From the NCBI GenBank assembly GCA_964501035.1, contig CAZCRK010000001.1, positions 1 through 64,000 on the forward strand: DNA of 64,000 nt, read 5' to 3'. Both the position numbers and the translations under genes were made by a program. Under the pieces are notes generated by a model. It did not search any database. It was not told the origin of the DNA and saw only the letters and a program-made list of their open reading frames with translations. Below, piece after piece: positions 50,429 through 54,696 of the stretch (within the stretch, counting starts at the first letter, position 1; each line of letters opens with the position of its first letter).

Positions 50429-52072
50429 ATGGCGCAAGAAAAAAACAACACATCTTTAATGGATAAAGTGATTTCTCTTTCAAAGCAAAGAGGTTACGTA
50501 TTTCAAAGTAGTGAAATTTACGGTGGTCTTAAATCTGCATATGATTATGGACCGCTTGGTGTTGAGCTCAAACGAAACCTAATGAATGAGTGGTGGCGTT
50601 CAATGGTTCATGAACGTGAAGATGTGGTTGGGATTGATGCTTCCATTATGATGCACCCAAAAGTATGGCAAGCATCCGGTCATTTGGCAGGTTTTTCTGA
50701 TCCACTTGTTGACTGTTTAATTAGTAAAGAACGATTCAGAGCAGATAAAGCACCTCGTCCTACAGCTGGAGATGAACTCCCCATTACGTGCAATGATAAA
50801 GGGCAAGCTAAAAATTATCAAGACGCTATCAAAAAACGATTTGACATTGAACTTCGTAGAAGCGGAAAAGTACTTAAAGGATTACGAGTTATCGATGAGA
50901 AAACATTTGGGTATTTTGAGGAATCTGCAGACACAACCACAACTACATTCCCGTATGCTGGATATGTTGGGCCGACATTTGGTTGCCCCTTTTTAAGTGA
51001 AGAACGGCAATTTAATTTAATGTTTCGAACTCAACTTGGTCCGGTAGATGTGATGGGTGAAGTATCCAAATTTATTGAAAACAATAAAGAATTAGAAAGT
51101 AAAGAACTCCGCAAGGGATTAGAAAAAATTATCGACAAATCAGCTGTTCATTTACGACCAGAAACAGCCCAAGCAATGTTTGTTCAATTTTTAAACTGTC
51201 AACAGACAATGTCTATGAAAGTACCCTTTGGAATTGCACAAATGGGTAAGAGTTTCAGAAATGAAATCACTACAGAGCATTTTATTTTTAGATCGTGTGA
51301 ATTTGAACAGATGGAAATGGAATTTTTTGTTGAACCCGGAACTCAAAAAGAGTGGTTGAACTATTGGCGAGATAAACGCCTAGATTGGTGGAAATCCTAT
51401 GCCAATCACCCAGAAAAGTTTATCTATCGTGCTCATGAAGCGGATGAACTTGCTCACTATGCCGATGCATGTTATGATATTGAATATGAATATCCATGGG
51501 GGTATGATGAACTTGAAGGGGTTGCCAGCAGAACAGATTATGACTTACAAAAACATGCAGAATATTCTGGTGCAAAACTCAGCTATTTTGATCAACAAAA
51601 ACAAAACCCTGAAACAGGGAAAAATGGTTGGAGATATACACCCTATGTTATTGAACCAGCAGCAGGCGCCACGCGTGGGTTACTAGTATATTTACTAGAT
51701 GCGTATCATGAAGAAACAGTTAAAGATGCAAAAGGTAATGATAGCACACGAGTAGTTATGAAACTACATCCTAGATTAGCACCCATAAAGGTAGCTGTTT
51801 TACCCCTCATTAAAAAAGATGGAATGCCTGAAATTGCACGTGATTTGGTTTCAACATTTTTCAAAGCAGGTATTAATGCAAAATACGATGAACAACATGC
51901 GATTGGAAAACGATACCGCCGTCATGATGAAGCAGGCACACCATTTTGCTTAACCATTGATGGTCAAACCAAAGAAGATGGAACGGTTACAATCCGAGAC
52001 CGCGACACAATGAAACAAGACCGAATTTCACTAGAAGAAGCATTGAGTGCTGTACAAAAAAGATTGTTGTAA
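50429..52072 (+). CDS. glyQS: Glycine-tRNA ligase, homodimeric type, with insertions
   Basis: YDYGPLG, WQASGH, FNLMF, LRPETAQ, GKSFRNEI, EFEQME, IGKRYRRHDE. Confidence 0.95.
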   Translation: MAQEKNNTSLMDKVISLSKQRGYVFQSSEIYGGLKSAYDYGPLGVELKRNLMNEWWRSMVHEREDVVGIDASIMMHPKVWQASGHLAGFSDPLVDCLISKERFRADKAPRPTAGDELPITCNDKGQAKNYQDAIKKRFDIELRRSGKVLKGLRVIDEKTFGYFEESADTTTTTFPYAGYVGPTFGCPFLSEERQFNLMFRTQLGPVDVMGEVSKFIENNKELESKELRKGLEKIIDKSAVHLRPETAQAMFVQFLNCQQTMSMKVPFGIAQMGKSFRNEITTEHFIFRSCEFEQMEMEFFVEPGTQKEWLNYWRDKRLDWWKSYANHPEKFIYRAHEADELAHYADACYDIEYEYPWGYDELEGVASRTDYDLQKHAEYSGAKLSYFDQQKQNPETGKNGWRYTPYVIEPAAGATRGLLVYLLDAYHEETVKDAKGNDSTRVVMKLHPRLAPIKVAVLPLIKKDGMPEIARDLVSTFFKAGINAKYDEQHAIGKRYRRHDEAGTPFCLTIDGQTKEDGTVTIRDRDTMKQDRISLEEALSAVQKRLL

Positions 52073-52081
52073 AAATCGAAG

Positions 52082-52537
52082 TTAAAATAGTATTTCCAGT
52101 ACATCCTTTGCATGTGATTTTGTTTTCACTTTTTCGAACACATGTTCAACTTTTCCCTCTTTAGATACAATATAGGTGATGCGGTGGATTCCCATGTATT
52201 CTCGCCCCATAAACTTCTTTAATCCCCATGCATTGTATGCTTTGAGCATTTCTTTATTTTCATCAGATAAAAGAGGAAATGGAAATTTATGTTTACTGCT
52301 AAATTTTTCCTGCTTAGTGACAGAATCTGCAGAAACACCTAATATTTGAATTTTCAAATCTTTAAATTGTTGGAATTCATCACGGAACCCCTTACCTTCA
52401 ATGGTTCAGCCAGGTGTACTTGCTTTTGGGTAAAACCAAATGACCACTTTTTGTCCCAAGAAATCTGATAAAGACACATCATTACCATGTTGATCCTTTA
52501 AAGAAAATGGGGGTGCAGTATCTCCAATGTTAAGCAT
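52082..52537 (-). CDS. bcp: Peroxiredoxin Bcp/PrxQ, selenoprotein (Sec44)
   Basis: [55 protein letters not shown] continues in frame into the ORF-track 52082..52357 protein; the TGA (52408-52406) sits at the peroxidatic Cys position. Confidence 0.9.
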
Positions 52538-52615
52538 AATAAAACTCCAATCGCTATAGTTTCTGTTCTAAATAGATATGATAATCTGCGTAAATTATGA
52601 CATTAGTTGAAAGTG

Positions 52616-52724
52616 ATAGTTCGACAGGCTCACTATTCAGTTGAAAGTAAAAAAGTAAAAAGTATTAAAGTGAAAAGCAGGATTTCACTCTTCACTCTTC
52701 AAACTTCAAACTTTAAACTTCAAC
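52616..52724 (+). repeat. Composite repeat: TTCGACAGGCTCA REP-like motif plus AAAGT-type heptamers and complementary tract
   Basis: Inverted homolog at 55384-55470. Confidence 0.7.
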
Positions 52725-52782
52725 ATTATGCCCCAGTGTTTCTGTGGTAGGTTAAAAAAACAGGTAAAATAGAAAGTAAAAA

Positions 52783-53037
52783 ATGATTAAAATTTATTCA
52801 ACCAGTTGGTGACCATCATGCATCGCAGCAAAACAGCTGTTAGATAGCAAAGGTTTGCTATATGAAGAAATAAATATAGAAGAAATTAATATGAGTCGAG
52901 ACGATTTGGTGAAAATTACTGGCGGAAGAACCGTTCCACAAATTGTCATTGAAGGGGCGCCCATTGGTGGATTTGATGCTTTAATGAAACTAAATCAAAA
53001 TGGAAAACTAGATCAGTTTCAAGTAGAAAGTGGTTAA
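52783..53037 (+). CDS. Glutaredoxin (GrxC-like), selenoprotein with UPSC motif (Sec10)
   Basis: MIKIYSTSW-TGA-PSCIAAKQLLDSKGL... in frame with RTVPQI and IGGFD; the TGA (52810-52812) occupies the first Cys of CxxC. Confidence 0.9.
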
Positions 53038-53081
53038 AGCATTATAGTGAAAAGTAGTAAAGTTGAAAGTTATTAACTTTT

Positions 53082-53429
53082 ATGGTAAAAATAAATAAAT
53101 TTGAAGATATAATTGCTTGGCAAAAGTCAAAAAATTTAACTCTTACTATTTATGAGCTATTTAGTGATAGCAACGACTTTAGTTTTAAGAATCAAATTCA
53201 GCGTGCATCAGTTTCGGTTATGAACAATATTGCAGAAGGATTTGAAAGACAATCCACAAAAGAGTTTAAGCAGTTTTTATATATTGCCAAAGGATCATGT
53301 GGAGAGGTTCGATCAATGCTATATCTTTCATTTGAATTACATAAAATCTCAAAGGAGGATTTTGAAACCAATCTAGATTTATGTAAGGAAATTTCTAAAT
53401 TATTATCAGGATTTATTAAAACATTATGA
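53082..53429 (+). CDS. Four helix bundle protein (23S rRNA IVS protein family)
   Basis: FEDIIAWQKS, QIQRASVSVMNNIAEGFER, FLYIAKGSCGEVRS; flanked by inverted heptamer tracts. Confidence 0.93.
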   Translation: MVKINKFEDIIAWQKSKNLTLTIYELFSDSNDFSFKNQIQRASVSVMNNIAEGFERQSTKEFKQFLYIAKGSCGEVRSMLYLSFELHKISKEDFETNLDLCKEISKLLSGFIKTL

Positions 53430-53502
53430 TAATTTTCAACTTTACATCTCATTTTTCACATTATTTACTTTCTACTTTAATACTTTATCTACTTTTAACT
53501 CC

Positions 53503-54696
53503 ATGAATTCTTTGTTTAACAATAAAAGTTTTCTCATTTGTGTTACAGGCTCTATTGCTGCCTACAAAGCATGTGAGGTAATTCGAATTTTACGTAAAGA
53601 AGGTGCATCTGTACAGGTTATGATGACAGAATCTGCAGAGAAATTTGTTGGGAAGGCTTCATTTGCCGCATTGACAAACAATGAAGTCATAACAGAAATA
53701 TTTCCAGATACACCTAAAGCAGGTCTTGAGCATATTGAAATGGCAATAGGGCTAGATGCAGTGTTAGTGTTGCCTGCTACTGCAAATATTTTAGGAAAAG
53801 TAGCCTCAGGAGTTGCTGATGATATTGTTTCAACGACATTATCTGTTTGCGAACAACCGACTTTATTTGCTCCTGCAATGAATTTTAGAATGTGGCAAAA
53901 CCCTGCAATTATGGATGCTGTTGATACACTGCGTGAACGTGGTAAGTTTGTCCTTGACCCAGAAAGCGGTCCACTTGCGAGTTTACATGAAGGGGAAGGA
54001 CGTCTTCCTGAAATTTCAGGAATTATGAATGCAATACGCCAACTGTTTGATAATCCTACCCCTCTTAGTGGTAAAAAAGTACTTGTAACAGCGGGTCCAA
54101 CACGTGAAGCAATTGACCCAGTGCGGTTTATTTCAAATCGATCTAGCGGTCAAATGGGGTTTGCGTTGGCAGAGACGTGTAGAGATTTGGGTGCTGAAGT
54201 AACATTGGTTTCAGGTCCAGTAAAATTACCCAATGTTCCAGAAGTGAATATGGTAAAAGTCGAAACAGCAGAAGAAATGTTGAATGCAGTCAAACTATGC
54301 ACCAATGTTGATTATATTTTTATGACGGCTGCTGTTTCAGATTATCAGGTAAAATCATCCTCACCTATGAAATTAAAACGTTCAAAGAAGGAATTTTCTC
54401 TAAAACTAGAACCTGCTCCTGATATTTTAGCATCAATAAAAGATAAAACAGAAGCACAAATAATTGCTTTTGCACTAGAGACCGAAAACGGGGAAAGTGA
54501 AGCAAAACGCAAAATGAAAACCAAAGGAGCATCTCATATTGTACTCAATTATGCAAATGAAGTAGGTGCCGGATTTGATGTTCCAACCAATCGGGTAGAA
54601 ATTTACTCTGAAAATGGAAGTTCACTAGAATTAAAAAAAGATAGAAAAGATAGAATTGCCAAAAAAATTATAGAATATGTCCTCAAAAACAGTTGA
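53503..54696 (+). CDS. coaBC: Phosphopantothenoylcysteine decarboxylase/ligase
   Basis: TGSIAAYKA, PATAN, APAMN, VTAGPTRE.IDPVRFISNRSSGQMG, AAVSDY, FALET. Confidence 0.95.
   Translation: MNSLFNNKSFLICVTGSIAAYKACEVIRILRKEGASVQVMMTESAEKFVGKASFAALTNNEVITEIFPDTPKAGLEHIEMAIGLDAVLVLPATANILGKVASGVADDIVSTTLSVCEQPTLFAPAMNFRMWQNPAIMDAVDTLRERGKFVLDPESGPLASLHEGEGRLPEISGIMNAIRQLFDNPTPLSGKKVLVTAGPTREAIDPVRFISNRSSGQMGFALAETCRDLGAEVTLVSGPVKLPNVPEVNMVKVETAEEMLNAVKLCTNVDYIFMTAAVSDYQVKSSSPMKLKRSKKEFSLKLEPAPDILASIKDKTEAQIIAFALETENGESEAKRKMKTKGASHIVLNYANEVGAGFDVPTNRVEIYSENGSSLELKKDRKDRIAKKIIEYVLKNS

Follow-up and report, generated by a model that had tools for sequence, protein, structure and literature searches.

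Selenocysteine (Sec) forms of peroxiredoxin (Sec-Prx, TxxU) and of glutaredoxin (Sec-Grx, UxxC) have been known since 2005 (Zhang, Fomenko and Gladyshev 2005, PMC1088965). In marine metagenomes, Sec-Prx (COG1225/PF00578) was reported as 43 genes in the Sargasso Sea (PMC1088965) and 253 in the GOS data (Zhang and Gladyshev 2008, PMC2398784), and the Sargasso Sea set also comprises 10 sequences of Sec-Grx (PF00462, UxxC) (PMC1088965). The first biochemical example of a Sec-Prx came from Eubacterium acidaminophilum (cited in PMC13188914), and the same 2026 review lists both families among the selenoproteins with established function. The Sec-Grx of Clostridium oremlandii reduces Sec-MsrA (Kim et al. 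2011, as summarised in PMC13188914). No Prx/Grx pair is described in the accessible part of the GOS main text (PMC2398784). A full-text literature search combining Marinimicrobia, SAR406 or Marinisomatota with selenoproteins or selenocysteine gave incidental co-mentions only. Peroxiredoxins fused to a glutaredoxin or dependent on one are exemplified by the hybrid Prx5-Grx of Haemophilus and the type II Prx of plants, both of them glutathione-dependent Cys enzymes from the Prx5 subfamily.

The locus described here is located in a window of 64,000 nucleotides (positions 1 to 64,000 of contig CAZCRK010000001.1, GenBank assembly GCA_964501035.1) and comprises two divergent genes, one for a PrxQ/Bcp-type peroxiredoxin (Bcp) and one for a glutaredoxin (Grx). 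Both are very probably genuine selenoprotein genes of a marine bacterium of the SAR406/Marinimicrobia type, as argued from their reading frames, their family membership, the Sec machinery of the genome, the conserved covarying hairpins and the pairs of Sec and Cys orthologues. The elements of the locus are the following:

52082..52537, minus strand: predicted Sec-containing PrxQ/Bcp-type peroxiredoxin, 151 aa, range including the TAA stop, one in-frame TGA
52406..52408, minus strand: predicted UGA (Sec) codon 44 of the peroxiredoxin, peroxidatic position, context STPG-U-TIEG
52538..52782, no strand: shared intergenic region of the divergent pair, 245 nt
52783..53037, plus strand: predicted Sec-containing glutaredoxin, 84 aa, range including the TAA stop, one in-frame TGA
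52810..52812, plus strand: predicted UGA (Sec) codon 10 of the glutaredoxin, N-terminal active-site position, context STSW-U-PSC
53082-53429, plus strand: four-helix-bundle protein gene (TIGR02436, 116 bits), between grx and coaBC

The Bcp shares with the Sec-Prx of marine metagenomes the fold, a PxxxTxxU motif with a predicted peroxidatic Sec, a candidate SECIS located within the coding sequence immediately downstream of the UGA, and the marine habitat. It differs from them in its assignment to a named lineage (SAR406/Marinimicrobia, for the most part a single class), in being entirely cysteine-free and in having its gene fixed beside a glutaredoxin. The Grx presents the fold and the UxxC active site of the known Sec-Grx, whereas its host shows neither gshB nor glutathione reductase and the Sec and Cys versions alternate among close relatives. 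The Clostridium Sec-Grx/Sec-MsrA couple is a precedent for a Sec-Grx serving a Sec enzyme without an efficient resolving residue, although the client proposed here would be a peroxiredoxin and not MsrA. The Haemophilus and plant systems are resembled in the proposed recycling of a peroxiredoxin by a genetically coupled glutaredoxin. Unlike those systems, the present one would consist of two separate genes, a peroxiredoxin of the PrxQ/BCP subfamily and selenium at one or both active sites, in a host with no detectable glutathione synthesis.

Under translation table 11 the peroxiredoxin frame is split into 52406..52537 (43 aa) and 52082..52357 (91 aa, TTG start), and the glutaredoxin is represented in the ORF list by a 60-aa tail only (52855..53037). 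When TGA is read through, a single frame is obtained for each gene, of 151 aa (52082..52537, minus strand) and 84 aa (52783..53037, plus strand), with exactly one TGA apiece. The original prediction had placed these TGAs at the catalytic Cys of both proteins, and they are indeed codons 44 and 10. It had also claimed intact homology on both sides, which is what the domain matches present: Pfam AhpC-TSA (PF00578) crosses the Bcp TGA (residues 4-132, profile positions 1-123/124, E 2e-38) and Pfam Glutaredoxin (PF00462) crosses that of the Grx (residues 2-58, E 9.1e-18, 64.7 bits against a cut-off of 22.9). Its description of the genes as hidden is fair with regard to gene calling, but not with regard to the families, which are both long-known selenoproteins. 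Its statement that both genes are truncated by standard callers agrees with the table-11 ORFs.

The best family match of the Bcp was NF006960, thioredoxin-dependent thiol peroxidase (187.1 bits, cut-off 140). Its active site reads P37-K-A-S-T41-P-G-U44, that is, PxxxTxxU in the wording of the review (PMC13188914). Residues P37, T41, P42, G43, position 44 and R119 are invariant across 20 orthologues. The whole 151-aa protein contains zero Cys residues, and the residue at +5 from the peroxidatic position, the place of the resolving Cys, is Lys; the Bcp is thus outside the atypical 2-Cys subgroup, the only group that a Cys at +5 defines, since it does not define the peroxiredoxin family. This Cys was identified in 63 of 68 Cys homologues versus 8 of 48 Sec-Bcp loci, the other 40 lacking it.

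The Grx scored 84.1 bits against TIGR02181 (GRX_bact, the bacterial Grx3 equivalog), whose cut-off is 90; the scoring of U as C may cost a little here. The core of its active site is U10-P-S-C13 (UxxC), with position 10 and C13 invariant across 20 orthologues. The protein also contains TVP and GG-F-D (GG-x-D) motifs, which have a role in glutathione binding.

The genome assembly, of 167 contigs and 95.7% complete, was searched for selA, selB, selD and tRNA-Sec, the genes that the original prediction of a Sec-decoding organism had named as its check, and all four were identified. The tRNA-Sec reached 65.8 bits (Rfam gathering score 47) and was called by ARAGORN as tRNA-SeC with anticodon tca. 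The genes selA (523 bits) and selB (375 bits) adjoin on contig 6, and selD (379 bits) is located on contig C13:7047-7973 (plus strand), all three over their curated cut-offs. The genome therefore presents the bacterial Sec-decoding trait, tRNA-Sec, SelA, SelB and SelD in one genome. A single in-frame TGA is found inside selD, at GAG-U-ACK, so SelD would itself be a selenoprotein in this organism. Elsewhere TGA is an ordinary stop, as had been stated from a few genes: among long ORFs (stop-to-stop frames of at least 200 codons) it terminates 13 of 45 in the window and 229 of 1129 genome-wide.

The Bcp TGA is covered by contigs of the public runs X3, X4 and X6 and the Grx TGA by contigs of X3 and X4, with no differing letter at either codon. 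These runs are independent in the sense of being other than the two flagged as possible sources, and their contigs thus show TGA where TGC or TGT in the reads had been named as grounds for dropping the prediction. The same comparison does list strain differences nearby, none of them at either TGA. Two runs with a metatranscriptomic label are flagged 'probably DNA'; of the Bcp gene, their contigs span no more than parts. That the TGAs are real is argued more strongly by their conservation among orthologues than by these independent contigs.

The consensus bacterial SECIS, as modelled in bSECISearch, has a loop of 3-9 nt, a stem of 4-16 bp, a distance of 16-37 nt from UGA to apical loop and an MFE of -7.5 kcal/mol or lower (PMC13188914). 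Its loop carries a G within the initial two positions, followed by G or U (PMC13188914). One candidate element was identified downstream of each UGA:

52372..52391, minus strand: candidate bacterial SECIS hairpin of the peroxiredoxin, 7-bp stem, loop CGUGAU
52844..52861, plus strand: candidate bacterial SECIS hairpin of the glutaredoxin, 7-bp stem, loop AGGU

With the U of UGA numbered as nt 1, the Bcp stem is formed by nt 18-24 with 31-37 and its loop starts 21 nt past the UGA, inside the consensus range. The Grx stem is formed by nt 35-41 with 46-52 and its loop is 38 nt past the UGA (37 when the loop is taken to include the closing A-U), which unlike the consensus is at or just past the 16-37 nt limit. 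Both agree with the consensus in the 7-bp stem, in loops of 6 and 4 nt and in a second loop nucleotide that is G, with U or G after it. As isolated hairpins they are slightly weaker than the consensus value of -7.5 kcal/mol, at -6.9 (Bcp) and -6.4 (Grx) kcal/mol.

The evidence for both elements is comparative. Across 39 distinct Bcp orthologues, 91.6% of the pair cells form standard pairs, and when the stem is slid by 1-3 columns only 10-61% do so. Double changes were identified in 18 cells, and the observed values were reached by 0 of 500 shuffles. The clearest covariation couples the third base of a Gly codon to a Phe-to-Leu change on the opposite arm. The loop CGUGAU is common to 26 of the 39 orthologues, and a hairpin with at least 6 of 7 pairs is present in 37 of the 39 Sec forms versus 0 of 67 Cys homologues. 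For the Grx, all 49 cells are paired (100%) in the seven Sec orthologues; four of the seven pairs vary on both sides, with 0 one-sided changes. The hairpin is fully paired in 7/7 Sec forms versus 0/17 Cys forms (53 of 119 cells pair), and its loop varies among relatives as GGGU, GGGC and AGGG.

Folding of single sequences was less distinctive, with unremarkable Z-scores between -0.16 and -1.45. A 54-nt stretch of the Bcp folds at -9.0 kcal/mol. The corresponding 51-nt stretch of the Grx reaches -13.1 kcal/mol, but in another fold than the conserved hairpin; the MFE of that region prefers a different structure, and the SECIS candidates are identified by comparative analysis only. A permissive Rfam scan of 51500-53600 returned no SECIS family, all its matches being at chance level (best E 2.5). 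Nearer to the UGA of the Grx, several Sec forms have another hairpin (nt 16-31), whose register differs between them and which L070 lacks at that position; it was not counted as part of the element.

The closest relatives belong to Candidatus Neomarinimicrobiota (Marinimicrobia/SAR406), and the comparison covered 41 genomes from the window's own genus, family and order. A Bcp match of at least 50% identity was identified in 32 of them, with an in-frame TGA in 32/32. All 36 Bcp loci retrieved from relatives carry the TGA after TPG (or T-S/L-G), and all 48 Bcp loci with U have it at the peroxidatic codon. In a scan of one genome per species, 12 of the best 80 Bcp loci contain the TGA; the remaining 68, from other phyla, have Cys (TGT/TGC) exactly at its place. 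In a phylum-wide sample the Bcp family model matched in 87 of 121 genomes, and the best match had an in-frame TGA, counted anywhere in the match, in 20 of 27 genomes of the window's class versus 2 of 60 in other classes.

The Grx presents another pattern. An orthologue was identified in 32 of the 41 genomes, with a TGA in 7 and without in 25. At the aligned codon, TGA is found in 7 orthologues and TGT/TGC in 17, the Cys forms reading W-C-xx-C; the alignment of Cys-containing homologues, proposed in the original prediction as a further check, thus puts Cys exactly at both TGAs. On a protein tree of 20 Grx orthologues two Sec/Cys changes are required, but its resolution is poor and a single change is compatible with its well-supported branches. 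The genomes with a TGA in the Grx are:

G000 (the present genome), G001, G007, G018, G010, G020 and G025

Four Sec-Grx loci (L040, L042, L049 and L061, of G018, G007, G010 and G020) have W-U-G-S-C as the active site. A very abundant 'UGSC-containing' selenoprotein family lacking a Pfam domain was reported from GOS (PMC2398784).

Other candidate selenoproteins were identified in the same group. Loci L069, L071 and L072 (of G025, G013 and G021) encode another Bcp-like selenoprotein, more distant (identity about 40%) and with the motif FTPG-U-xK-x-A-C. As this type has the Sec together with a Cys at +5, Sec-Bcp would exist in the order in a 1-Sec and a Sec/Cys-resolving version. In the window's own genome no match of this type with an in-frame TGA was identified. 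In this genome, a frame of 640 aa at contig C73:364-2283 (minus strand) does have a single in-frame TGA, at the U of a redoxin-like motif (S-P-L-U-P-V-C) that is preceded by a long N-terminal repeat region and followed by two dockerin-like repeats. Several relatives have comparable frames, about 640-735 aa long and likewise with a single TGA. This frame is probably a secreted selenoprotein fusion of the Prx-like or thiol:disulfide oxidoreductase type.

Two readings that would deny Sec to these genes have to be weighed against this material. The explanation of the TGAs as sequencing or assembly errors, or as inactivating mutations in pseudogenes, has nothing in its favour beyond a bare stop codon. 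It is effectively refuted by the same-codon TGA in 39 distinct Bcp and 7 Grx sequences with frames intact on both sides, by the agreement of contigs from the runs of other studies, and by a hairpin that co-occurs with TGA and not with TGT/TGC. A decoding of UGA as something other than Sec, either as Cys by a tRNA-Sec-like tRNA or as Trp or Gly through partial stop reassignment, draws on the fact that the inserted residue is not readable from sequence alone. This too is very improbable in a genome with a complete Sec pathway, including SelA, SelD and a tRNA-Sec over the Rfam gathering score, and with TGA as the end of 229 of 1129 long ORFs. Here the UGAs are confined to positions of redox-active Cys, with conserved hairpins of the SelB type downstream of them. 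Under the selenoprotein reading, SelB with Sec-tRNA(Sec) would recognise the short mRNA hairpin just downstream of each UGA and selenocysteine would be inserted, at the peroxidatic position (TPG-U) of the Bcp and at the N-terminal active-site position (U-PSC) of the Grx.

Neighbouring, divergent bcp and grx genes are present in 28 of the 41 genomes, and these 28 are spread over five families of the order. Exceptions are two genomes where both are present but apart (G025 and G032), three with Bcp alone (two of these at contig ends), two with Grx and without this Bcp (G026 and G030) and six with neither. The six co-absences are not taken as evidence, since adjacent genes can be lost or left unassembled together and related genomes are not independent. 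The flanks of the pair are the glycine-tRNA ligase gene (glyS) upstream and, downstream, the four-helix-bundle gene followed by coaBC. The four-helix-bundle protein belongs to TIGR02436, the '23S rRNA intervening sequence protein' type. Its gene looks like an insertion, since in one relative (L044, G040) coaBC comes directly after grx.

The intergenic region (52538..52782), which presumably holds both promoters, has 245 nt versus about 75-190 nt in relatives. A sigma-70-type scan gave 7 sites versus 7.3 expected, none of them inside 52538-52782. Between 52600 and 52735 the spacer is filled with direct and inverted repeats of the AGTTGAAAGT / AAAGTGAAAAG type, and a 13-bp terminator-like hairpin is located at 52667-52698. 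Similar repeats follow the grx stop (53022-53073), and AGTTGAAAGT has 27 occurrences in the genome. Contigs of other samples present a 7-nt deletion at 52697. These repeats may represent a small dispersed element that entered the promoter region common to both genes. In run X3, two short contigs of 81 and 126 nt connect the glyS end (52071/52073) with 52616/52618 and leave out 544 nt, among them all of bcp. The sides of the joint are only 30-41 nt long, and it could correspond to a bcp-less strain variant, to another organism or to an assembly-graph shortcut via the repeats.

The head-to-head arrangement had suggested a peroxidase with its reductant, and the chances that Bcp and Grx form one peroxide-reducing relay appear about even. 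Having no Cys, the Bcp cannot recycle itself and needs an outside reductant, for which the neighbouring Grx is the obvious candidate. In such a relay, peroxide would oxidise the Bcp selenol to a selenenic acid, the Grx would attack it with its own Sec to give a Se-Se intermediate, and Cys13 of the Grx would resolve this intermediate. Reducing power for the Grx would then come from thioredoxin reductase or from a small thiol, for instance gamma-glutamylcysteine. As 25 of the 32 orthologous Grx are Cys forms, the Se-Se step cannot be general.

Genes for the recharging step were searched in the genome. The genome encodes a thioredoxin reductase (TrxB, 416 bits), a glutamate-cysteine ligase of the GCS2 type (415 bits, cut-off 409) and another ligase that is YbdK-like. 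No E. coli-type gshA and no gshB were identified in it, and gshB is over its cut-off in 0 of the 41 genomes (this one and 40 relatives). Glutathione reductase was not found either, the best match being the dihydrolipoyl dehydrogenase Lpd (TIGR01350, 575 bits). Since neither gshB nor glutathione reductase was found, classical glutathione is unlikely as the thiol that recharges the Grx, and the candidates are thioredoxin reductase, gamma-glutamylcysteine and imported glutathione.

The pair may instead be made of real selenoproteins that are functionally independent, a possibility that falls somewhat short of an even chance. The Bcp would be recycled by thioredoxin and TrxB or by a small thiol, and the Grx would serve other clients, e.g. 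ribonucleotide reductase or protein de-thiolation; their arrangement would then reflect shared regulation under oxidative stress or inherited gene order. Consistent with this are the presence of TrxB, the naming of the best family match as a thioredoxin-dependent peroxidase and the use of thioredoxin by most PrxQ/Bcp enzymes. Adjacency alone is weak evidence for a relay: the block glyS - bcp - grx - coaBC could simply be a conserved order, the genes are apart in 2 of the 41 genomes, and the Grx occurs without the Bcp in another 2. Also against the relay, the Grx keeps its glutathione-type motifs, yet gshB is over its cut-off in none of the genomes. What speaks against independence is the divergent pair kept in 28 of 41 genomes across five families, together with a Bcp lacking any resolving Cys; among Cys-type 1-Cys BCPs, a missing resolving Cys goes with dependence on glutathione or Grx. 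The idea of a peroxidase with its reductant is plausible, and these two features strengthen it.

A more specific form of the relay can be proposed for SAR406/Marinimicrobia, although as a whole it is doubtful. It would be a dedicated, glutathione-independent peroxide relay of two selenoproteins, where a cysteine-free '1-Sec' PrxQ is regenerated through a diselenide with the Sec-Grx and the latter is recharged by thioredoxin reductase or gamma-glutamylcysteine. In it the Grx would have flipped between Sec and Cys several times in the order, with its SECIS gained or lost.

Both genes are ordinary members of two known selenoprotein families that automatic annotation probably misses, and knowledge of how Sec is decoded is left unchanged by them. 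The modestly new aspects concern the lineage of the host, the fixation of Sec in the Bcp throughout the class, the cysteine-free sequence of this Bcp and the apparent lack of glutathione synthesis. A further one is the conserved divergent neighbour of the Bcp gene, a Grx whose alternation between Sec and Cys is shared by its SECIS. The Grx, with Sec in 7 genomes, Cys in 25 and a SECIS only in the Sec forms, is a clean comparative set for Sec/Cys exchange, and a cysteine-free Bcp beside a Grx in genomes with no detectable glutathione synthesis poses a testable biochemical question. If the two-selenoprotein relay were true, the clade would offer a naturally occurring test of the contribution of selenium to a thiol relay. 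SAR406 is a very abundant lineage of the deep ocean. Since these genes are probably mis-called in ordinary annotation, its antioxidant capacity and its selenium demand would be under-counted.
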